Assembly (NCBI GenBank): GCA_039980135.1
Contig: JBDXCV010000003.1
Coordinates: forward strand, 1,027,458 to 1,091,457
Source of the DNA: Alphaproteobacteria bacterium
GTDB lineage: Bacteria; Pseudomonadota; Alphaproteobacteria; UBA6615
Direction of reading: 5' to 3'
DNA length: 64,000 bases
Below the pieces are notes generated by a model, which was not told the origin of the DNA, did no database searches, and saw only the letters and a list, made by a program, of their open reading frames with translations. This document shows, one piece after another, positions 21,682 through 33,482 of the stretch. The stretch's first letter is position 1. Each line of letters starts with the position of its first letter. The translations under genes were made by a program, and so were the position numbers.

Positions 21682-22824
21682 TCAAGGCGTGTGCGGGCTG
21701 TTCAGATAGTCCTCGGCCTGCATCTCCATCAACCGCGACACCGTGCGTTGAAACTCGAACGCCGTATCGCCCTTCATGTAGAGCTCGCCCGGCTCGCCGT
21801 CGGCGCTGGCGAACAGGTTCACATGATGCTCATAGAGCGAATCGATCAGCACCACGAACCGCTTGGCGGCGTCGCGCTCGCGCTCGTCGAGGATGGGAAT
21901 ATTGTCGATCATCACGGTGTGAAACTGGGTCGCAATCGCCAGGAAATCGGAGGCGCCGCGCGGTTTGTTGCACAGTTCGTCGAACGTGAAACGCGCGATC
22001 CCGCGCGCCGCCTGGCGTGCCTCGATGCTGCGTCCCTGGACCTCGATTTCAAACGGCAACGGGTCCGCATTGTCGGTCAGGGTCGCGAAGGCCGCGTCGA
22101 GCTGGGCGGTCGCGGCCCGTCCGATCGGGGTGTGCCAGATCGGCTCGCCCTTGAGCCGGTCGAGGCGGAAGTCCGTGCCCGCACCGATATCGAGGACATC
22201 GAGCTTTTCGAGGATCAGGTCGATGAAAGGCAGGAACCGGTCGCGCTGCAGGCCGTCTTTATACAGATCGCGCGGGGCGACGTTGGACGTGGCGATGACG
22301 ACCACGCCGTGATCGAAGAAGGCCTGGAACAGGCGGCCCAGGATCATCGCGTCAGCGATGTTCACGACATGGAACTCGTCGAAACACAATAACCAGCTCT
22401 CGTCGGCGACATCCGCGGCGACCTGCATCAGCGGGTCGGCGCGTTTCTCGTGTTTGCGCAGCTCGTTGAGGCGTTGCTGGATCTCCAGCATGAAGGCGTG
22501 GAAATGCACCCGCCGCTTGCGCTCGACCGGCGCGGTGTCGAAGAAAAGGTCCATCAGCATCGATTTGCCGCGCCCGACCGGTCCGTAGAGGTAGAGCCCC
22601 ATCGGCGGTTCTTCGCTGCGCCGCCCGAGGCCGAAGCGATCCTTCCAGCCCGACAGGAAGCCTTCGCCGGCGGGCTGATACCCCTTCAGGGCATGATGCA
22701 GGCTCTGCAGTTTCTCGACGGCGAGCTTCTGCGTGGGGTCGCGCATCAGCTCGTTCGCCTCGCGCATGGTGCGATAGAGGTCGAGCGGCGTCGGCAGTTT
22801 CGAATCGAGGATTTCGTCAGGCAT
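21682..22824 (-). CDS. zapE: Cell division protein ZapE (AFG1-like ATPase)
   Basis: 380 aa. Walker A GPVGRGKS. Walker B LLCFDEFHV. AFG1 family architecture. Confidence 0.9.
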   Translation of the reverse strand: MPDEILDSKLPTPLDLYRTMREANELMRDPTQKLAVEKLQSLHHALKGYQPAGEGFLSGWKDRFGLGRRSEEPPMGLYLYGPVGRGKSMLMDLFFDTAPVERKRRVHFHAFMLEIQQRLNELRKHEKRADPLMQVAADVADESWLLCFDEFHVVNIADAMILGRLFQAFFDHGVVVIATSNVAPRDLYKDGLQRDRFLPFIDLILEKLDVLDIGAGTDFRLDRLKGEPIWHTPIGRAATAQLDAAFATLTDNADPLPFEIEVQGRSIEARQAARGIARFTFDELCNKPRGASDFLAIATQFHTVMIDNIPILDERERDAAKRFVVLIDSLYEHHVNLFASADGEPGELYMKGDTAFEFQRTVSRLMEMQAEDYLNSPHTP

Positions 22825-22885
22825 TGCGGCGGTTAACTAGGCCAGCTGGCGGCGGCGTGCAACCGGACGGGGCGCATCGGGCGGT

Positions 22886-24241
22886 TTACTGAGCCGCCGC
22901 GGCGGCCGGAGCGGCGAACATGGCCTCCATATCACGGCGCACCTGCACGGCCTGGATATTGGGGTCGATGTCCACATCGGCCCAGCCGACCGGCTGGTCC
23001 TTGCCCACGGCGTTCTTGAGTGTCACCCCGTGGGCCAGCCCGATGGGAAGTCCGCCCGCAGCGAGGCTGGCCGCGGCCGGCATGAGTTTGCCGTAAACGG
23101 TGAAACCGCCCTCGCCATCCAGCGCATCACCGGGTTTCAGGTCGCGCTTCGCGGTGGCCACCGCATCCCCGCGGAACCCGGTGGGAGACCCGGTCGGTTC
23201 GTTGCGCAATGCCGCGCTCGCGACGGAGATGCCGAGCTCCAGCCCGATCAGGTGATAGGGCTTCCACTGGGCGGCGTAGTTGCCCGATACATCGGTCACC
23301 AGTCCGTATTCGTCAAAACACGTACGGACATAATCGCTCGGGGCCTCGAACACCACATAGACACCCCAGCGCAGATCGCCGGTGACATGGCGGCCGTCGC
23401 GTTCCTCGGAGCTGATCACCTCGACCTGTCCCTTGTGGTGCAGTTGGCCGCCCTCGGACTTCGGGCGCATCACATGCGGCAGATCGTGGACACCGCAGGC
23501 CGGAAAGGCCAGCCCGTCGGGGGCGGGGCTCAGCCCCGTAGCGTTGGCCACGGCGGCCATCTCGATCGCCGACTTGGTCCCGTCGAGGAAAGAATTGAAC
23601 ATCTGCGGGTTCATACCGCCGGCTGCAGCCTGTTCGGCCGTCAGCCCGTAATGCTCCCAGACATCGTCCGGCGTCACATAGTGATAGCCGTCGAGATACT
23701 TGGTGCCCTTGCCCGCCGCGATGACATCGAGGCCGCAGGCCCGCGCCCAGTCCACTTGCTCATGAATCAGCGCCGGCTGGTCGCCATAGGCCAGCGAATA
23801 GACGATGCCCGCCTGGCGTGCACGTTCGGCCAGCAGCGGCCCGGCCAGAACGTCAGCCTCGACATTGACCATCACGATATGCTTGCCGTGTTCGCAGGCC
23901 GCGAGCGCGTGGGCGATACCTGCGGCGGGGCTGCCGGTCGCGTCGATCACCACGTCGATCCCGCCGGCGGCGACCAGCGCCATCGAATCTTCGGTCAGGT
24001 GGGTGTTGCCCCGGGACAGGGCGGTATCGAATGTCGCGGCAGACGGGTCCAGCCCGCCGACCCGCGCGCAGGCATCCCGGGCGCGTTCCGGATCCAGGTC
24101 GGCGATGGCCATGACGTGAATGCCGGGTGTGCGGGCGGCCTGGGACAGATACATGGTGCCGAACTTGCCCGCGCCGATCAGGCCCACCCGGACCGGTTTC
24201 CCGTCTTCGGCGCGCCGGCCAAGCATCGCGTGGAGGTTCAT
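22886..24241 (-). CDS. NAD(P)-binding oxidoreductase with C-terminal SAF-like domain (COG4091 / predicted homoserine dehydrogenase-like family)
   Basis: 451 aa. N-terminal Rossmann GLIGAGKFG. C-terminal Gly-rich SAF-like region. Family assignment is from memory of the domain architecture, not a database search. Confidence 0.5.
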   Translation of the reverse strand: MNLHAMLGRRAEDGKPVRVGLIGAGKFGTMYLSQAARTPGIHVMAIADLDPERARDACARVGGLDPSAATFDTALSRGNTHLTEDSMALVAAGGIDVVIDATGSPAAGIAHALAACEHGKHIVMVNVEADVLAGPLLAERARQAGIVYSLAYGDQPALIHEQVDWARACGLDVIAAGKGTKYLDGYHYVTPDDVWEHYGLTAEQAAAGGMNPQMFNSFLDGTKSAIEMAAVANATGLSPAPDGLAFPACGVHDLPHVMRPKSEGGQLHHKGQVEVISSEERDGRHVTGDLRWGVYVVFEAPSDYVRTCFDEYGLVTDVSGNYAAQWKPYHLIGLELGISVASAALRNEPTGSPTGFRGDAVATAKRDLKPGDALDGEGGFTVYGKLMPAAASLAAGGLPIGLAHGVTLKNAVGKDQPVGWADVDIDPNIQAVQVRRDMEAMFAAPAAAAAQ

Positions 24242-24318
24242 TGCGCTGTCCTTTTCATTTCCCGCTATTCTATCGGTGCAGCCTACTACGAATTGCGAAC
24301 AGAATCCGGAGGGGAACC

Positions 24319-24876
24319 ATGACCGACTACAACGAAAATGCCCGTGTACCGCATGTGTCGCGGGATGCGTTTCCCGCCGATCAGGTCGGTATCTACGACC
24401 ACATCATGGAAACCCGTAAGCTCGAATTCATGGCCGAACTCTTCGCCCGGATGGCCAGCAGCCCGGGCGCGCTCGAAGCGGTGGCGTCGGTCGGCGAGCA
24501 TGTCCGTTTCCACAGCGTGTTCGATGAGGTTCTGCGCGAGATGATCATCTGCACGGTCTCGAAGGAGGTCGGCAACTGGTACGAATGGACCCATCACATT
24601 CACCGGATGCCCGACGATATGCGCGCGGTGTGCGGCACGCCGGCTGCCGAGGATCTGCCCGCGCCCGTCGGCCCGGTTCTGCGTTTCTCCCGGATCGTCG
24701 CCGGCAACGGCAAGGCCGATGACGCGCTGATCGGGGAAATCCGTGCCACTCTGGGAAATCAGGGCCTCGTCGATCTGACGGTGATGGTCGGCTACTACCA
24801 GCTCATCGGCACCTTCTGCACGACGTTGCATGTGCCGATCGAAGACTCGATCGAACGCACGCCGATGCCGGACTGA
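24319..24876 (+). CDS. Carboxymuconolactone decarboxylase (AhpD-like) family protein
   Basis: 185 aa from ATG 24319 with GGAGGGG RBS; the track ORF extends further upstream. CMD-family fold with a conserved His (EWTHHIH). Confidence 0.6.
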   Translation: MTDYNENARVPHVSRDAFPADQVGIYDHIMETRKLEFMAELFARMASSPGALEAVASVGEHVRFHSVFDEVLREMIICTVSKEVGNWYEWTHHIHRMPDDMRAVCGTPAAEDLPAPVGPVLRFSRIVAGNGKADDALIGEIRATLGNQGLVDLTVMVGYYQLIGTFCTTLHVPIEDSIERTPMPD

Positions 24877-24892
24877 ACGATTCCAAACAGTT

Positions 24893-24985
24893 CGTCATAC
24901 GCGGGCTTGACCCGCGTATCTCGTGCGTCGCTGGACGGAAAACCAGAAGAGATGCCCGGAACAAGTCCGGGCATGACGGTGAAAG
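24893..24985. repeat. Intergenic double-hairpin repeat element, copy 1 (family with invariant ATGACGGTGAAAG)
   Basis: CGTCAT-[ACGCGGG cttgac CCGCGTAT]-CTC ... GAGATG-[CCCGGA a CAAGT CCGGG]-CATGACGGTGAAAG. Lies between convergent CMD and PhyH genes. Near-identical architecture recurs at 53352-53433. Confidence 0.7.
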
Positions 24986-24997
24986 GGCGGAAAACCC

Positions 24998-25801
24998 TTA
25001 CTCAGCCGCCGCGGTGTTTTCCCGGGCCAGCGCCAGCAGGCAGTCATCGTCGAGCGGTTCGATCGGCGCGAAGTCGCGGTGGGCGATCCATTCCTCGCGC
25101 TTGAACTGGCGGATGTGATTGTCCACATGGCACAGGCTGAGATAGACGATCACCCGGCCCCAGGGGCTGATGTTCGGCGCCGAAGCGTGCACCAGGTTCG
25201 AATGGAACAGCAGGACCGAGCCCGGCTTGCCTTTCGGCGCGATCATCCCGCCTTCGTCGGCGAGTCTGGCGACGGTTTCCTTGTCGAGGGTCCACAGCGG
25301 GTAGGAGGTGGTTTGCAGATCATGCCCGGCCTCGATCACGCCGCCCTTGTGGCTGCGGGGAATCAGGTAGAGCGGGCCGTTGAACTCGGTCACCTCGTCG
25401 ATGAACAGCGCGATGTTCATGGCGCGGGCCTTGGGCATCTTGTCGTCGCGCGCCCAGGTCCCGTAATCCTGATGCCATTGCCAGACGTCGCCGTCGAACG
25501 CGGCCTTTCCGTTTATCTTGTACTGGTGCATGTAGACGTTGCCGTCGAGCAGCTGCATTACCGGTTCGATCAGGCGGGGATGGCGGCCCAGGCGACGGAA
25601 CGCCTCATTGTAATAATGCGCGGCAAATGCGGTACGCACGGCCTCGCCGTTAGATTCGCGCCACACCTCGTCCCGGTCCATTGCGAAAATCGTCGGCAAT
25701 TCGGCCGCGAGGACATCCATTTCCGCCTGGCTGAAGACCTCGGGGAGGAACACCCAGCCCTCGGTGTCGAACTGTTCGAGTTGGTCCTTGGTCAGTTCCA
25801 T
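24998..25801 (-). CDS. Phytanoyl-CoA dioxygenase (PhyH) family Fe(II)/2-oxoglutarate dioxygenase, ectoine-hydroxylase-like
   Basis: Start at the internal MELTKDQLEQF (ATG 25799-25801). WQWHQDYGTWARDDKMP resembles the EctD signature WHSDFETWHxEDGMP. Several His/Asp metal ligands. Confidence 0.7.
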   Translation of the reverse strand: MELTKDQLEQFDTEGWVFLPEVFSQAEMDVLAAELPTIFAMDRDEVWRESNGEAVRTAFAAHYYNEAFRRLGRHPRLIEPVMQLLDGNVYMHQYKINGKAAFDGDVWQWHQDYGTWARDDKMPKARAMNIALFIDEVTEFNGPLYLIPRSHKGGVIEAGHDLQTTSYPLWTLDKETVARLADEGGMIAPKGKPGSVLLFHSNLVHASAPNISPWGRVIVYLSLCHVDNHIRQFKREEWIAHRDFAPIEPLDDDCLLALARENTAAAE

Positions 25802-25913
25802 GGCGCCGCTCCCGGCCAATGTGAGTTGTCTGCCCGGACTATAGCCCGCCCGACTGGTGACGCGGCACATTTAACGTTAGGTTCGCTTGGTTTTTCAACC
25901 GCCGGGTCGACTG

Positions 25914-26264
25914 ATGCTGTCCTATCTGAATCTTGCCCTCGAACTCACAGCGAGCCCGATTGCGCTGGCCGGCTATATCGGGCTGGGCGTTTATGCCACG
26001 ACCAGTTGGCGGGCTTTCAAATATGCGTTTCTTTGGGGAATGGCGGTTCAGATTTTTGCCCTGGCGCTGGGCAAGGTCTCGTTCCTCGATCTCGAGGGGC
26101 TCGTCGCCCAGACGATATTGCGCCTGATCGGTGCATTGATCGTCACGATCGGCGTCTACTATCTGTACCGCTTCATGCGCGGGCGTTCGGGCGGCAAAGG
26201 CCCGCACGACAGCGGGCCGCCGAAGCAGGACCGCAAGCCGCCGCATCTGCGCCGGGTGAAATAG
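25914..26264 (+). CDS. Small hypothetical membrane protein (3-4 TM helices, basic C-terminal tail)
   Basis: ORF track 25887-26264. Hydrophobic segments LALELTASPIALAGYIGLGVYA, FLWGMAVQIFALAL, ILRLIGALIVTIGVYYLY. No family recognised. Confidence 0.4.
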   Translation: MLSYLNLALELTASPIALAGYIGLGVYATTSWRAFKYAFLWGMAVQIFALALGKVSFLDLEGLVAQTILRLIGALIVTIGVYYLYRFMRGRSGGKGPHDSGPPKQDRKPPHLRRVK

Positions 26265-26270
26265 CACGCG

Positions 26271-26894
26271 TCAGTCGGCGCGTGACCGCATCAGTGCGGC
26301 CAGGTCTCTTTCAGTCTCGCGCGCGCTTTCGGCCAGCTCGTTCGAAACATTGGCACGGTCCCCTTCGGGCCGGTTCTGGCTCAGCTTGAACTTGCCCTCG
26401 AGCCGCCCGATCGGCATTTCGAAGGCGGTGACACCCCGCAGCATTCCCTCGATATAGCGCTCTGGCTGACCATCCATTGTCCAGGCCGCGGGGCCGGTGC
26501 CCTCGAAGGCCCGGATGAGCGCCGCCTGTTGGGCCCGGACCTTCTCTATGTCCGTCACCTCCTGCGCCGTGCCATAGGCATGCACGACGGCGTAGTTCCA
26601 GGTGGGCACGGCGTCGCCGGGCGCATACCAGCGGGGCGAGATATAGGCATGGGGGCCCTCGAAAATCGCCAGCAAACTGGACTTGCCATCGAACATTTCG
26701 CCATGGGGGTTGTTCCGCGCGACGTGGGCGACGAGCGTACCGTTCACCCCGGCCGCCGGGTCGAGCATGAACGGGATATGGCTCGCGAAAGGGGCGTCGT
26801 CGCGTTGTCCGATCAGAATACCGAACGGGTTGGCCGCGATCAGGTCGTGCAGGATTCCGACGTCGGTTTCGCGAAAATGTTTCGGTACGAACAT
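26271..26894 (-). CDS. paiB: FMN-binding negative transcriptional regulator PaiB family
   Basis: 207 aa. N-terminus MFVPKHFRETDVGILHDLIAANPFG typical of PaiB. Confidence 0.75.
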   Translation of the reverse strand: MFVPKHFRETDVGILHDLIAANPFGILIGQRDDAPFASHIPFMLDPAAGVNGTLVAHVARNNPHGEMFDGKSSLLAIFEGPHAYISPRWYAPGDAVPTWNYAVVHAYGTAQEVTDIEKVRAQQAALIRAFEGTGPAAWTMDGQPERYIEGMLRGVTAFEMPIGRLEGKFKLSQNRPEGDRANVSNELAESARETERDLAALMRSRAD

Positions 26895-26921
26895 GGCGCG
26901 GCCTCCGGGATCACGCGTGTT

Positions 26922-27839
26922 TCAGGGCGAGGCCGGGGTCAGCGTGAAACGGCAGGTGCCGCGCGCGATGCTCCGAAACTCGATCGGCGCGCCGGGCGCA
27001 GGCAGGACGGCCTCGAACAGGTCGGACGCCTGATCCGGCACGTCGATCGTCGGCGCGGCGCCGGCATTCTCTGTGACCTGAGCGAAGCGCTGTTCGTTCG
27101 AGACCATGTAGATGCGCATGTCACCCAGGGTGCCGAACACCGCCAGCCGGTCGTCGATAACCCCTTCGAGAATAAAGTCCTTCTGCGCCAACGCGACATT
27201 GCCTTCGGGCACGGCGCATGTGCCGGTCGTCGCCAGGTCGTAATCGCCCGCCAGCGCGCGCGCCGTAGATTCGTCGCGCATGCGTTCGCCCGCGCCGACC
27301 ACGCTCAGGGAATGCACTGCGGCGGCCAGCAGCACCGGTAATTCGATGGCCTCGCCGTTCGGCAACTGCATGTTCGTCCGCGCGTTCTGAAACATCTGTC
27401 CGAAGTTCGGGCTGGTCCGGGCCAATGCCTGCATAAAACCGGCCTGCACCACGATCGAAAAAGTGCCTTCGATGCTCGTCGCGACGGTATGCGCCAGTTC
27501 GTCCCGGCTGCTGTCGGCCACGCCGTTCTCGATTCCGGCCCGAACCGTTTGCATGGTCCTGGCGGTCTCCGCGCTCTGCGCCGTCATCGTATTGAGTGCC
27601 GCATTGAGGCCCTCGATGCGGGCCGGGTCGGTGGTGCCGTCGTAATACAGGAAGACGGCGCCGGGCTTGAACATGTTGGCGGGGCCGGCGGGAAATCGCT
27701 CGCTCTGGGCCTGCGCGGGACCGGCGACCGAAAACGCGAGCGCCGCGGACAGAGCCGCGGCGTTGCGCAATTTCGAAACAGGCTTGCCGACCGGGTACGT
27801 GCGCCCGACGGATGTTTCGCGATGGAAGATGCTGTTCAA
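26922..27839 (-). CDS. Uncharacterised secreted/periplasmic protein, translationally coupled to sdhB
   Basis: Signal peptide [21 protein letters not shown]|QS. Ala-rich, two Cys, no recognised domain. TTG start at 27837-27839 overlaps the sdhB TGA; an alternative TTG lies at 27770. Confidence 0.55.
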
Positions 27840-28615
27840 ACCCGGCGTTCCACCATCATCTTCTTGATTTCCGCGATCGCCTTGGCCGGGTTGAGATGCT
27901 TCGGGCAGGTGCGGGTGCAGTTCATGATGGTGTGGCAGCGATACAGGCGGAACGGATCCTCGAGCTGGTCGAGGCGGTCACCTGTCGCCTCGTCGCGGGT
28001 GTCGGCGAGCCAGCGATAGGCCTGCAGCAGGATGGCCGGGCCGAGATAGCGGTCCTCGTTCCACCAATAGCTCGGACAGGATGTCGAGCAGCAGGCGCAC
28101 AGGACGCATTCCCACATGCCGTCGATCTTGGCCCGATCTTCGGGGCTCTGCAGGCGCTCGCGCTCGGGCGTCTGGCTGTCGGTCTTGAGCCAGGGTTCGA
28201 TCTGCCGGTACTGGGCAAAGAAATGGGTCTGATCGGGCACCAGATCCTTGATCACCGACTGATGGGGCAGGGGGTAGACCCGTACATCGCCCTTCGCGTC
28301 GGCGATATATTTGGTGCAGGCCAGCGTGTTTCCGCCGTCAATGTTCATCGCGCAGGACCCGCACACGCCCTCGCGGCACGACCGTCGGAAGGTCAGGGTC
28401 GGGTCGACCTCGTTCTTGATCTTGATGAGCGCGTCGAGGACCATCGGTCCGCAATCGTCGAGGTCGAGATGATAGGTGTCGACCCGGGGATTGTCGCCGC
28501 TGTCCGGGGACCAGCGGTAAATCTTGAAGGCCTTTGTATTGGTCGCGCCCTCGGGCTTGGGCCACTCCTTGCCTTCGGTCACTTTCGAATTCTTCGGCAG
28601 CGTAAACTCAGCCAT
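27836..28615 (-). CDS. sdhB: Succinate dehydrogenase iron-sulfur subunit
   Basis: 259 aa. 2Fe-2S, 4Fe-4S and 3Fe-4S Cys clusters ([38 protein letters not shown]). Confidence 0.95.
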
Positions 28616-28646: not shown

Positions 28647-30440
28647 CTAGTAGGACCGCACCTTGGGCGGGAAGCTCTGGACTTCGTTGGTCATTGTCTG
28701 GAGGTGTACCGGGCGATATTTGAGGTCGACTTTGCCCTTCTCGTCGACCCAGGCAAGCGTGTGCTTCATCCAGTCATCGTCGTTTCGGTCGGGGAAGTCT
28801 TCGCGTGCATGTGCGCCCCGGCTTTCCTCGCGCTCTTTCGCGCCATTGATCGTGATCACCGCCTGCATCATCAGATTTTCGAGCTCGAGAGTCTCGACCA
28901 GGTCGGAGTTCCAGATGAGTGAGCTGTCGGACACGTTCAGATCGTCGCGCGCACCCCAGAGTTCGTCGAGTTTGTTCGCGCCTTCCTGCAGGACCTCACC
29001 GGTGCGGAACACGGCGCAGTTGTTCTGCATCGTGCGCTGCATTTCGAGGCGCAGTTTCGCGGTCGGTGTGCTGCCCGAGGCGTGGCGAAGCTTGTCGAAG
29101 CGCGCGAGTGCTTCATCGCCGGCATTGTCCGGAAGCGGTTCGTGCGGTGTCCCCGGCGTGACCAGCTCGGCAGCGCGAAGTGCGGCAGCCCGGCCGAACA
29201 CGACTAGGTCGAGCAGCGAGTTCGAACCCAGACGGTTGGCACCATGTACCGAAACGCTCGCGGCCTCGCCGATGGCCATCAGGCCCGGCGTGACGGCTTC
29301 GGGATCGTCCTCGGTCCAGGTCCGGACTTGGCCCTGATACGTCGTGGGAATGCCACCCATATTGTAGTGACAGGTCGGCAGGACCGGGATCGGCTCCTTG
29401 GTCACGTCGACGCCGGCGAAGATGCGTGCCGTCTCGGAGATGCCCGGCAGGCGCTGGGCCAGGACGGCGGGGTCGAGATGTTCGAGATGGAGATGGATAT
29501 GGTCTTTCTCGTCGCCGACGCCACGGCCTTCGCGCATCTCGATGGTCATTGACCGGCTGACAACATCGCGGCTGGCCAGATCCTTGGCCGACGGGGCATA
29601 GCGTTCCATGAAACGCTCGCCTTCTGAATTGGTCAGATACCCACCTTCGCCGCGCGATCCTTCGGTGATCAGCGCACCGGCGCCATAGATGCCGGTGGGA
29701 TGGAACTGAACGAACTCCATATCCTCCAGCGGCAATCCGGCGCGCGCAACCATCGCGTTGCCGTCGCCCGTGCAGGTATGCGCGGAGGTGGCCGAGAAGT
29801 AGGCCCGGCCGTAGCCGCCCGTCGCCATGCATACGAGGTGCCCGCGGAAGCGGTGCATCGTGCCGTCGGCCAGATTCCAGGCCATGACGCCCCGGCACTT
29901 GCCGTCTTCCATGATCAGGTCGAGGGCAAAATACTCGATGAAGAACTCGGCGTTGTAGCGCAGCGACTGCTGGTAAAGCGTATGCAGGATCGCGTGGCCG
30001 GTGCGGTCGGCCGCCGCGCAGGTGCGCTGGGCCGTCCCTTCGCCGTAATTCGTGGTCATGCCGCCGAAGGGCCGCTGGTAGATCTTGCCTGCTTCCGTGC
30101 GGCTGAACGGCACGCCCTGATGCTCGAGCTCGATGATCGCCGGGATCGCCTCGCGGACCATGTATTCGATCGCGTCCTGATCGCCCAGCCAGTCCGACCC
30201 CTTGACGGTGTCATACATGTGCCAGCGCCAGTCATCCTCGCCCATATTGCCGAGTGCGGCCGAAATGCCGCCCTGCGCCGCCACTGTGTGGGAGCGTGTG
30301 GGAAACACTTTCGAGATGCAGGCCGTTTTCAGGCCCTGGTTCGCCATGCCGAATGTGGCACGCAATCCGGCACCACCCGCGCCCACGACGATAACGTCAT
30401 AGTCATGGTCGATGATTTCATAATCGCCGTTGGTCGCCAT
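28647..30440 (-). CDS. sdhA: Succinate dehydrogenase flavoprotein subunit
   Basis: 597 aa. FAD-binding VVGAGGAGL. Covalent-FAD His region [10 protein letters not shown]. Confidence 0.95.
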
Positions 30441-30450
30441 CGTTAACCCC

Positions 30451-30828
30451 TTAATTCAATGCGATTGCGATCACGGCGTAGACCGAGGCGACGCCAAGGA
30501 AAATGGCCGCGCCTTTGACCGCGATGATCAGGCCCACTTCGAGCCAGCGTGTGTGGATGTAATCCTCGATCACGACCTGCAGGCCGAGTTGGCCGTGGTA
30601 GAAGGTGGCGACGATCAGGAGGATCAGCAGAACGGAATTGATCGGGCTGCTGATGAATTCGACGGCGGCCGCGTGGTCGGCGCCGGTCACGATGATCATG
30701 GACACGACGAACCAGATCACGAGCGGGATCAGGGCCAGTGCCGTCAGCCGCTGCATCCACCAATGGTCGGTGCCGCTCTTGGCCGATCCGAGGCCGCGCG
30801 CGCGGCTCAGGGGGGAGCGCATGTTCAT
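30451..30828 (-). CDS. sdhD: Succinate dehydrogenase hydrophobic membrane anchor subunit
   Basis: Start at the internal MNMRSPL (ATG 30826-30828) with GGAGGG RBS. 125 aa, 3 TM helices. The track ORF over-extends upstream. Confidence 0.85.
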
Positions 30829-30830
30829 CT

Positions 30831-31226
30831 CTATAGCCCTCCGAGGCTGGCGTATCCGGCGACCCAGCTGATGACAGTCAGGACTGCCGCAGCAATGACG
30901 ACCAGCCAACCCGAGGCAAACGCGGTGCTCAGTTCGAAGCCCTTGCCGGCGTCCCAGACCAGATGCCGGATGCCGTTGCAGAGGTGATAGTAGAGCGCGA
31001 AGCTCCAGGCCAGCAGCAGGATCCGTCCGACGACCGAGCCGATGAAGTTCTGCACGGCCGCGAATTCGGTCGGGCCCGCGGCGGCGGCGATCAGCCACCA
31101 GACCAGGAGCAGGGTACCGACGGCGAGGCCGATGCCCGTGATTCGATGAAGAATCGACAGCACCGATGTGAATTGCGGGCGATAGACCTGAAGGTGCGGT
31201 GATAGCGGTCTGTTGTCGGTCGCCAT
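30831..31226 (-). CDS. sdhC: Succinate dehydrogenase cytochrome b556 subunit
   Basis: Start at the internal MATDNRPLSPHLQVYRPQ (ATG 31224-31226). 131 aa. Typical SdhC N-terminus and heme-ligand His. Confidence 0.85.
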   Translation of the reverse strand: MATDNRPLSPHLQVYRPQFTSVLSILHRITGIGLAVGTLLLVWWLIAAAAGPTEFAAVQNFIGSVVGRILLLAWSFALYYHLCNGIRHLVWDAGKGFELSTAFASGWLVVIAAAVLTVISWVAGYASLGGL

Positions 31227-31499
31227 GTGGCCCCCTGACGTGGCTGCAAAGCCGGAACACGGGAAATGGTTCCGGTGGGTTTTCCGTGTGCCACGCGCCG
31301 TTGAACGGTCGTTCATGCCGGTCGCGTGGGTACGAATATCTACGAAGCAGATTTAGCCTCCCACCGCCCGTTTCGTCAATGACACAGCCCCGCGCAAGAG
31401 CTTGGATCGCCGGGCACAGGCTCTCATTGAAGCAAAGCGTGTGGAAAACCTGTGGAGGAGTTGTGATCTACCGGTCGAGTTTTGCACAGGAAACTGTTT

Positions 31500-32135
31500 G
31501 TCGGCCGCGATTGGACATTGCCGCCTTGGGGGTGGCGGCGGAACATGTCCGCGCACGCTTTGGCGTGTCGACGGGTTTCTGTCGCGTCCGATCCTCCGCT
31601 CTGCGGCTGGCTCGGGCAGGTCCGGGGCGCTCACCAGGGGGCGAGACGGATCGGCGGGAACCGAACGCCGGACCACGGGGGTCGCCGCAAGGCGATGCCG
31701 GGTCGGGCGGGAAAGTCGGCGGATGGACATGATCCTTCGGGATCGATCGCCTCGGTGGATGTCCATTCATGTGCACGGTCCGGCATGTGGGCAACCACGC
31801 GCCGGGTGCCGGGCACGGCCGGGCGGCCAGACGGACATGGGCTTCCTCGGAAGGGCATGATCAGAGGCCGGCCGGTAAGGAAGGTGCCGTTGCGCAGACC
31901 AGCGGTCTTTCCGGTGGCGCGAACCCTTCGGGGCCCGCGCGCCGCCCTGATGTCCGCTTCGGTGGGCCCCGGGGCGAAGGAAGGATGGCGGCGTTTCGTG
32001 ATCCAGGCTCTCGCCGGCCAGGAATTCGGAACGACGGCCGGGCGGAAACCGGGGCTCTTCGGAGTTGCGGGGACCAACCGGGCGGGTTTGAGGAAAGGTT
32101 GCCGACCTTAGGCTTCGACCCCTTCGGGGGCGGCA
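31500..32135 (+). ncRNA. Candidate large structured RNA of unknown class
   Basis: A 1.37-kb gap between divergent sdhC and pdxK holds only Arg/Pro/Gly-rich spurious ORFs. Five C(UUCG)G-type hairpins lie at 31731-31744, 31924-31933, 31954-31965, 32054-32065 and 32119-32130. Nested long stems: GGACAT...ATGTCC at 31513-31550, and ATGGACAT...ATGTCCAT enclosing the first UUCG hairpin. Strand inferred from the UUCG loops. Boundaries approximate. Confidence 0.4.
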
Positions 32136-32603
32136 TGGAACGTGTCAAAGCGGACGATGCCGGATAAGCGAAGCGCGCTGGACGACGTATCGGCCAGGGG
32201 TGCGTCCCACGCGCGGAGCGACGAGAAGCTGAACGTCAAGGTGGGTATTGGGTCGAAGCCGGCGGGGCGCAAGCCTCGCGGGTGGGGATCCGAAGGGTCT
32301 GAAGTCCAGGGGGCAACTCCGGGATCGGAAGATCGAGGAAGGCGTCAGGCGTTACGGGCTCCGCGTCCATGCACCTGGCGCCTTCTTCATTTCCGGAGAC
32401 TTTATGCGACCCTTGCCAGAAGGTGATCCGTGCGCCGGGCATGAAAAGAACCCGGCGCTTTCGCACCGGGCTCTTTCTCAGGCGTCTAAAGCCGGGCCCC
32501 GCATCCAGGCAGATCAATATTCGAGAGGTATCAACGGCGTTTCGCGTCGGTCAAACGAATTCTTGTGCCGGGGCGGCGACGAAGGCAAAACCGGTCCCCA
32601 GCG

Positions 32604-33482
32604 ATGAATATTCTCTCCATACAGTCTCAGGTCGTGTTCGGCCATGTCGGTAGCTCGGCGGCCGTATTTCCGCTTCAGTGTCTCGGACATGAGGCCTGGT
32701 CCGTCCCCACCGCGATCCTCTCCAACCATGCCGGCTATCCGGATGTTGGTGGTCATGCGATGCCGCCGGACACAGTCCGCGACCTGCTCGACGGGCTCGA
32801 GCGTCGCGGCGCCTTTCCCAGTTGTAACTTGCTGATCAGCGGCTATCTCGGCAGTGCGGCGCTCGCCGCGCTGGTCACCGACACGGTCGGCCGTGTGCGG
32901 GCGGTAAACCCGGACCTGATCTATTGCTGCGATCCGGTGATGGGCGATGAGGGATCGGGATTGTATGTGCAGGCGTCGCTGCCCGAGCATTTTCGCACCT
33001 CGGCGCTGCCGGTCGCGGACCTTATAACCCCCAACCTGTTTGAACTCGCGCTGTTGTGTGGATGCGATTTCGGGGCGTTGAAGGCGGCGTCGGCGAGCGA
33101 GATCGTCGCGGACGGCCGCAAGCTTCTGGCGCACATGCGGCCGGGTGCCAGTGTCATGGTGACCAGCGCCGACCATCGTGATCTTGACCCGGGGCGCGTG
33201 GCGGTCATTGCGTTCAACGATTCGCAGGCCTGGTCCTTGGAAACGCCGCGGCTTGCGTTTCGATCGGATCCGCATGGGGCAGGTGACCTGCTCAGCGCCC
33301 TCTTCGCGGCGGCGATGACGGATCACCGCGGCCTGGCCCGTGCACTGGAAGATAGTGTTGCCAGGGTCTTTGCCGTTCTTTCGGAAACCCGGCGGCGGTC
33401 AGGCGCCGAACTCGAACTGGTCGCGGCGCGCGATGTGATCGTGTCGCCGGCGCAATACTTCTCGGCGGTTTCGGTCGCCTGA
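32604..33482 (+). CDS. pdxK: Pyridoxal kinase (PdxK/PdxY family)
   Basis: Start at the internal MNILSIQSQVVFGHVGSSAAVF (ATG 32604). Ribokinase-like fold. GDEG...YV and C-terminal GAGD motifs. Confidence 0.8.
   Translation: MNILSIQSQVVFGHVGSSAAVFPLQCLGHEAWSVPTAILSNHAGYPDVGGHAMPPDTVRDLLDGLERRGAFPSCNLLISGYLGSAALAALVTDTVGRVRAVNPDLIYCCDPVMGDEGSGLYVQASLPEHFRTSALPVADLITPNLFELALLCGCDFGALKAASASEIVADGRKLLAHMRPGASVMVTSADHRDLDPGRVAVIAFNDSQAWSLETPRLAFRSDPHGAGDLLSALFAAAMTDHRGLARALEDSVARVFAVLSETRRRSGAELELVAARDVIVSPAQYFSAVSVA

Follow-up and report, generated by a model that had tools for sequence, protein, structure and literature searches.

The locus described here poses the question of why a gene for a secreted protein should begin on the stop codon of sdhB, and whether its product has any part in succinate dehydrogenase (SDH, or complex II). 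The gene, termed X below, occupies positions 26922..27839 on the minus strand of the 64,000-nucleotide stretch of alphaproteobacterial DNA that was analysed (hereafter the window). It encodes the 305-amino-acid precursor of an exported protein from an unannotated family, an assignment that draws on the ORF call, homologs, dN/dS and GC3. An earlier reading of this DNA, made from its letters (the sequence-only reading), had described an Ala-rich ORF of about 300 amino acids at this place and had regarded it as a fifth gene of the sdh operon. The composition (16.1% Ala, compared with 7-10% in SdhA and SdhB) and the cistron position are both borne out by our analysis. The locus thus departs from the ordinary sdhCDAB operon by one added gene, and on balance a function for X in SDH is judged unlikely.

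An apparent fifth cistron in an sdhCDAB operon

All genes of the operon lie on the minus strand. The first, sdhC (30831..31226), was assigned from the ORF call and encodes a cytochrome b556 membrane anchor of 131 amino acids; its start was placed at an internal ATG (MATDN...), chosen to fit the 131-amino-acid PF01127 orthologs in three relatives (L001, L004 and L005). A gap of 2 nucleotides separates it from sdhD (30451..30828), which specifies a 125-amino-acid membrane anchor with 126-amino-acid orthologs that match PF01127. After a further 10 nucleotides comes sdhA (28647..30440), whose 597-amino-acid flavoprotein product is 86-99% identical to orthologs carrying PF00890 and PF02910, and 31 nucleotides beyond it is sdhB (27836..28615), the gene for the 259-amino-acid iron-sulfur subunit (Fer2_3, 3.6e-32; NF004616, 2.5e-112). 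Downstream of X, at a distance of 27 nucleotides, is a gene for a 207-amino-acid PaiB-like FMN-binding protein (FMN_bind_2; 26271..26894; PF04299, 1.1e-52). This gene has its own GGAGG site and is probably the last cistron of the sdh-X transcript.

Gene order, subunit sizes (131, 125, 597 and 259 amino acids) and tight spacing are all shared with the canonical alphaproteobacterial or Escherichia coli-type sdhCDAB operon, which encodes a type C succinate:quinone oxidoreductase, but the operon in the window adds a fifth cistron for an exported protein over the sdhB stop. We know of no characterised sdh operon that includes a gene for a periplasmic protein, and a literature search on extra periplasmic genes in sdh operons returned nothing relevant.

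The TTG start codon of X (27839-27837) and the TGA stop codon of sdhB (27838-27836) have two bases in common, and thus form the TTGA junction (27836..27839, minus strand) that the sequence-only reading had pointed out. The coding-strand sequence across it is ...GTG GAA CGC CGG GTT TGA ACA GC..., with the sequence GGTGGA located within sdhB about 10 nucleotides upstream of the X start, and we regard TTGA as a putative site of translational coupling. No other junction in the operon is as tight, the remaining gaps being 2, 10, 31 and 27 nucleotides. A scan for promoter-like or terminator-like sites between sdhB and X stayed at background level and revealed none. With its 4-nucleotide overlap and no intervening site, X would be expressed together with the sdh genes, and as judged from this arrangement it is the fifth cistron of sdhCDAB, with its start overlapping the sdhB stop.

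Gene X is under purifying selection

The length of the X reading frame proves nothing by itself, because this window, at 64% GC, has many long ORFs in antisense orientation. The GC3 value of the frame is 0.83, which equals that of sdhB, and 31 close homologs were found (E values from 6e-49 to 3e-192), all of which are annotated as hypothetical or left unnamed. Pairwise comparison with the three nearest relatives by the Nei-Gojobori procedure yielded dN/dS values of 0.22-0.29, at dS values of 0.68-0.86 for the two closest relatives, which are unsaturated, and of 1.07 for the third. X is a genuine gene under purifying selection. Two plus-strand ORFs that overlap X (26529-27341 and 27489-28019) were rejected as antisense artefacts of high GC content, given that conservation, GC3 and dN/dS favour the minus-strand frame.

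The overlapping start codon

Taken by itself, the overlap between sdhB and X is weak evidence, because three of the four possible bases before a TGA stop create an NTG codon. The same consideration lends something to the alternative that coupling is only apparent, wherein X would start at an internal TTG or be expressed independently and the overlap would be a by-product of TGA. Such an internal TTG exists in frame at codon 24 (MRNAAALS...), and a workable signal peptide is also possible from there. The overlapping start is nevertheless supported by its conservation, in that ATG, GTG or TTG occupies the overlap position in all 17 of the other distinct junctions, and in 16 of these the frame so started is open through to the signal peptide. 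The junction is TTGA in the window and in five relatives (L012, L013, L014, L015 and L020), GTGA in four others (L004, L009, L010 and L018), TGATG in L001 and L003, and TAATG in L008 and L019.

Several lineages therefore use canonical ATG overlaps (TGATG and TAATG), which argues against a mere by-product, as do the absence of room for a promoter, the absence in the window of an alternative ATG or GTG from the overlap to the hydrophobic region of the signal peptide, and an N-terminal extension (HRETS-GRT-P-G) that X shares with its homolog P0002. An internal start would in any case leave X co-transcribed with sdh. One lineage, that of P0027, does favour merely apparent coupling, since there the frame from the overlapping ATG meets a TAA stop after six sense codons and the protein is otherwise conserved. 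All told, we consider it quite improbable that the coupling is only apparent. A start codon placed over the upstream stop and conserved among orthologs is what is expected of a translationally coupled cistron, and re-initiation at this site is the mechanism that we would propose.

The P0027 lineage shows some further peculiarities. In its three loci (L005:3716-3835, and likewise L006 and L007) the short frame reads MTVETS*, and past the TAA both the hydrophobic core of the signal peptide and the mature protein are preserved. Translation in these genomes must begin in some other way, because the overlapping ATG frame stops early and yet the remainder of the protein is conserved; the start chosen by the gene caller, Met56, would give a product that lacks the signal peptide.

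An exported protein with two predicted domains

The product of X carries an N-terminal signal peptide (residues 1-44; 27708..27839, minus strand), as assessed by manual criteria, alignment and model confidence. By the manual criteria, its n-region has a net charge of +4 and is followed by a hydrophobic region of 12-13 residues (Kyte-Doolittle 2.0) and by an A-Q-A|Q site suited to signal peptidase I, and homologs have comparable regions. These features agree with the Sec signal peptide and the cleavage before QS (AQA|QS) that had been proposed from the sequence. The signal region varies in length and sequence among homologs, the 11-residue mature N-terminus is conserved, and residues 1-42 are disordered in the AlphaFold2 model (pLDDT below 50). 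There is no cysteine ahead of residue 208 and hence no lipobox for signal peptidase II, and the n-region lacks an RR pair of the twin-arginine type, which is only sporadic in homologs. The mature protein would comprise about 261 amino acids (27.6 kDa, pI 4.6).

The model, together with an alignment of 28 close relatives (alignment A1), indicates that the mature protein is built from two domains. Residues 54-190 (27270..27680, minus strand; pLDDT 81-96) form a domain of six helices, in which the alignment reveals a conserved D113-x-L-A116 motif and a motif at S122. Residues 198-302 (26934..27248, minus strand) are predicted to form an up-and-down antiparallel barrel of eight strands, which at the level of fold class would be calycin-like, and which bears the motifs Q-x-DF-xx-E, G-xx-G, NEQR[FY] and VPD-x-PSDLFE.

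Exactly two cysteines are present, as had been noted earlier. Both are encoded by TGC on the minus strand, Cys208 at 27216..27218 and Cys296 at 26952..26954, and both are invariant throughout the family (alignments A1 and A2, the latter described below). Because in the model Cys208 follows the first strand of the barrel and Cys296 opens the last, we infer that a disulfide staples these two strands together. Such a bond is consistent with the export of X.

A family that databases do not recognise

The sequence-only reading had recognised no domain in X, and systematic searches lead to the same result. X matches nothing in Pfam or NCBIfam at E<=0.1, a profile search of PDB sequences with the X family gave nothing beyond noise, and a Foldseek search of the X model against PDB and BFVD found nothing at E<1e-3. 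A profile search of 1.84 billion representative sequences yielded 71 clusters at 50% identity (E<=1e-3), mostly of 260-300 amino acids and with signal peptides or lipoboxes. Among the 28 sequences in alignment A1, 43 columns are invariant, including both cysteines. Alignment A2 holds 49 diverse members at a mean column identity of 25%, and in it no column except those of the two cysteines is invariant, with near-invariance at one Ala (the one in D-x-L-A), one Glu, two Gly, a P-D pair and one Leu. When these 49 members were themselves compared with Pfam and NCBIfam, there were only isolated matches at chance level, such as one weak match to DUF6801 (E 0.0021). Two members, P0055 (524 amino acids) and P0071 (518 amino acids), are longer at the C terminus, with about 240 additional amino acids beyond the barrel.

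Known proteins with calycin-type barrels of eight strands include avidins, bacterial lipocalins such as HP1028, GrlR, the barrel of Cap15 and the fatty acid-binding proteins (FABPs). The identity between X and its structural matches is 7-13%, with Foldseek E values of 0.01 or above, and X differs from these proteins in having an additional helical domain of about 140 residues and a cysteine pair and motifs of its own family. No Pfam match to lipocalins, avidins or YceI (PF04264) was found in X. X is not a member of any of these three groups at the sequence level, and at most it could be a periplasmic binder of the calycin type.

The known SDH assembly factors (SdhE/SDHAF2, the LYR proteins SDHAF1 and SDHAF3, and SDHAF4) act in the cytoplasm or mitochondrial matrix on SdhA or SdhB, and it is in the cytoplasm that SdhA acquires its flavin and SdhB its Fe-S clusters. 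Their genes serve complex II in an accessory role and sometimes lie near sdh. Profiles for SdhE/SDHAF2 (PF03937), LYR proteins and SDHAF4 gave no match to X in the Pfam and NCBIfam searches (E<=0.1), and a Sec-type signal peptide and an invariant cysteine pair do not suit a cytoplasmic protein. Because the sequence match is lacking and the compartment is wrong, X is not a known SDH assembly factor. A metal or haem chaperone, whether PCuAC-like or a cytochrome, was likewise ruled out, as there are no conserved His or Met residues and no CXXCH motifs.

Genomic associations among relatives

Among the loci of the closest relatives, L001-L011 were obtained by contig look-up and L012-L020 belong to GTDB species representatives. 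Their source genomes are marine metagenome-assembled genomes labelled as Alphaproteobacteria or Rhodospirillaceae bacterium, for example from the Tara Red Sea samples. In this close clade of uncultured, Rhodospirillaceae-like marine bacteria, sdhB is directly upstream of X in every locus whose upstream side can be read. The order pdxK-sdhCDAB-X-paiB-PhyH-DRL-AFG1-mdh-sucC is collinear across the clade, and the 15-kb region is syntenic. Because these are close relatives that share synteny across the whole region, the sdh-linked loci are not independent, and amount to approximately one or two inherited arrangements.

In most loci X is followed by an FMN_bind_2 gene at a spacing of 10-36 nucleotides, and PaiB is the second-fastest evolving protein of the cluster. 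These two observations would fit a separate X-paiB module that merely abuts sdh, joined in some genomes by a gene for a PEMT/ICMT-type methyltransferase. However, paiB is absent after X in two loci (L015 and L019) and the methyltransferase gene lies downstream of X in some loci only. Moreover, PaiB lacks a signal peptide and therefore is cytoplasmic whereas X is exported, and the distant relatives of X have no paiB neighbour. We give very little credence to a separate module of this kind. Because the downstream gene changes, with paiB sometimes missing, it is sdhB and X that constitute the invariant pair.

A sister group, about 30% identical to X, occupies the same position behind sdhB and includes tandem paralogs, one a lipoprotein (X') and the other a soluble form of X. 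The most complete arrangement, at L028:97-1934, consists of sdhB, a GTGA junction, X' (a 318-amino-acid lipoprotein with the lipobox VSGC), a 4-nucleotide overlap, the soluble X (P0039) and paiB. In two other loci (L027 and L029) sdhB is followed by X', and a further one (L022, 3-1843) reads X'-X-paiB-PEMT. The lipoboxes of X' are VSGC, SAGC and LAGC. This pairing suggests that X' and soluble X could possibly form a heterodimer.

The most distant members are found elsewhere. P0052 and its relatives are situated after gyrA-serS, away from sdh, in four loci (L023-L026) that were retrieved with a three-sequence alignment. P0038 belongs to a tandem pair of paralogs (L030; 7886-8623 and 9001-9786), both of which match the family HMM at E values of about 1e-90. 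This pair lies on a 174-kb contig beside Gln-synt_C, GATase_6/7, GXGXG, Glu_synthase and DAO genes, a setting unrelated to sdh. The check that the sequence-only reading had suggested, on whether the place next to sdhB is conserved in related genomes, comes out in its favour for the close marine clade and for the sister group; the most distant members (the gyrA-serS loci and L030) are not near sdh. Three of the gyrA-serS loci, on soil-type contigs, hold internally deleted remnants of 130-177 amino acids (L024:3118-3651, L025:5917-6309 and L026), and the copy in L023 is of full length. The remnants are a sign that the family decays easily.

Rapid evolution and probable loss of X

X is the fastest-evolving gene of the cluster. 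Comparisons with relatives give identities of 48-72% for X, as against 86-99% for SdhA and, where full-length sequences were compared, 90-98% for SdhB, and the PhyH and DRL proteins of the same relatives are 82-94% and 85-95% identical. When the window is compared with L013, SdhA is 99% identical and X only 71%. The corresponding omega values are 0.22-0.29 for X, 0.016-0.06 for SdhA and SdhB, and 0.05-0.08 for PhyH, DRL and AFG1, so that the value for X is 5-10 times that of its neighbours.

In two of the 10 GTDB species representatives, a degraded copy of X sits beside an intact sdhB (L014:5983-6936 and L018:5983-6849). An in-frame stop codon replaces Q132 in L014 and Y200 in L018, and at positions where the remaining 28 sequences show no variation the two copies have three and six substitutions, respectively, compared with zero to two in a leave-one-out control. 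Both copies are probably pseudogenes, which would mean that X is being lost in some lineages. Selenocysteine incorporation or readthrough was ruled out for these two genomes, because the stops replace Gln and Tyr rather than Cys and are accompanied by the substitutions at invariant columns.

An SDH subunit should be retained with its enzyme and be held under constraint like that of its partner subunits. X departs from this pattern in its decay in L014 and L018, in its omega values and in having family members that are not linked to sdh. The early TAA in the coupled frame of L005-L007 is another reason not to take the conserved position as proof of an SDH role. As far as can be read from these sequences, a family that duplicates and decays readily and that evolves quickly is behaving as a periplasmic accessory with a binding or protective role would, and not as a respiratory subunit.

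Possible roles of X

Given these characteristics, we lean towards the view that X is a lineage-specific binding protein of the periplasm, co-regulated with SDH but not essential for it, and that it is an add-on to the operon instead of a subunit of the enzyme. Binding is suggested by fold class alone, because Foldseek finds nothing at E<1e-3; barrels of the calycin type have repeatedly been used to bind small ligands. Under this proposal, a single transcript would cover sdhCDAB-X, and perhaps paiB as well, and ribosomes that finish sdhB would re-initiate at the overlapping TTG, such that X is made with complex II and roughly in proportion to it. The precursor would be exported by Sec, cleaved after AQA44 and oxidised at Cys208 and Cys296. 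The mature protein may then serve as a non-enzymatic binder in the periplasm, holding a small ligand inside the barrel or at its opening, with the helical domain perhaps acting as a lid. Its output would be tied to respiratory and TCA cycle activity, yet SDH would work without it, and no physical contact with SdhCD is envisaged.

Two features count against an add-on. The position of X is remarkably constant, with sdhB and X kept together where the downstream genes change, and L028 preserves two overlapped paralogs at about 30% identity, which goes beyond what is expected of a random passenger. These features suit an alternative in which X is a periplasm-facing accessory subunit of complex II, or a factor for its assembly or stability, made at about 1:1 by coupling and docking on the periplasmic loops of SdhC and SdhD; in the sister clade, docking could occur through the lipoprotein and soluble paralogs together. 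In favour of such a partner are the conservation of the sdhB overlap across TTG, GTG and ATG starts in every locus of the clade, the persistence of the linkage in the ~30%-identity paralogs (sdhB-X'-X in L028, sdhB-X' in L027 and L029), and the retention of sdhB-X despite the loss of paiB.

We know of only one precedent for an unexpected extra subunit in a bacterial SDH, namely SdhF. This 3-kDa membrane subunit of Mycobacterium smegmatis Sdh2 has a single transmembrane helix and was seen in the enzyme by cryo-EM (PMC7447783). SdhF illustrates that bacterial complex II can include a lineage-specific component that annotation did not predict. In contrast, X is predicted to be a soluble, exported, two-domain protein of 27.6 kDa.

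Against a partnership with complex II, the sdh-linked loci come from closely related, syntenic genomes and represent perhaps one or two independent observations, and omega is 0.22-0.29 for X compared with 0.02-0.06 for SdhA and SdhB. Furthermore, degraded copies of X accompany an intact sdhB in two of the 10 species representatives, and the family core (two Cys, E, G-x-x-G and PD) is kept in members far from sdh. Finally, SdhC and SdhD (131 and 125 amino acids) are of ordinary length and lack any extra periplasmic segment for docking. A role as an accessory subunit or as an assembly or stability factor thus appears unlikely to us. More specifically, X (with X' in the sister clade) could be a stoichiometric, periplasm-facing fifth subunit by virtue of its coupling to SdhB, and might hold a quinone- or isoprenoid-like ligand or connect SdhCD with a partner in the periplasm; this we judge to be improbable. 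The sequence-only reading had offered an assembly or regulatory factor and a lineage-specific passenger as options. For the former, position is the only argument, set against a gene that evolves faster than its neighbours, has decayed in two species that keep sdhB, and has distant members unlinked to sdh and close relatives that are not independent. A passenger, which is in keeping with the add-on that we favour, is the best-fitting of these options.

If X is a passenger, it represents one more small uncharacterised periplasmic family of about 70 clusters at 50% identity, which would be useful for annotation and of modest weight otherwise. Its combination of domains is unreported, and the family has no relative in Pfam, NCBIfam or PDB. 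If X does touch complex II, a periplasmic component would be added to an enzyme that is held to be fully described in Proteobacteria, and a true fifth subunit would be the first extracytoplasmic component of a bacterial type C succinate:quinone oxidoreductase. Alphaproteobacteria are the bacterial class closest to mitochondria. The locus is also a clear-cut case from nature in which a secreted protein would be coupled to a cytoplasmic Fe-S subunit via one overlapping stop and start.

Other features of the neighbourhood

A small convergent ORF for a membrane protein (25887-26264, plus strand) closes the unit. Beyond it are genes for a PhyH-family dioxygenase (24998-25870), a DRL-type oxidoreductase with a SAF domain (22886-24241) and an AFG1-family ATPase (21682-22824), all on the minus strand. 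This neighbourhood (21682-26264) is conserved, and in relatives mdh and sucC come next, such that TCA cycle genes are interleaved with the same uncharacterised genes throughout the clade. On the other side of the operon, a pyridoxal-kinase-like gene (32565-33482, plus strand) is divergent from sdhC. Scanning the window for Rfam families and tRNAs gave no hits. An interval of about 1.3 kb (31227-32564) that separates sdhC from the pyridoxal-kinase-like gene has no convincing gene and no Rfam match, and the matching region in relatives carries differing ORF calls without recognised domains (321 amino acids in L004, 182 in L010). This interval could contain the promoter or leader of sdh, or an unrecognised element.
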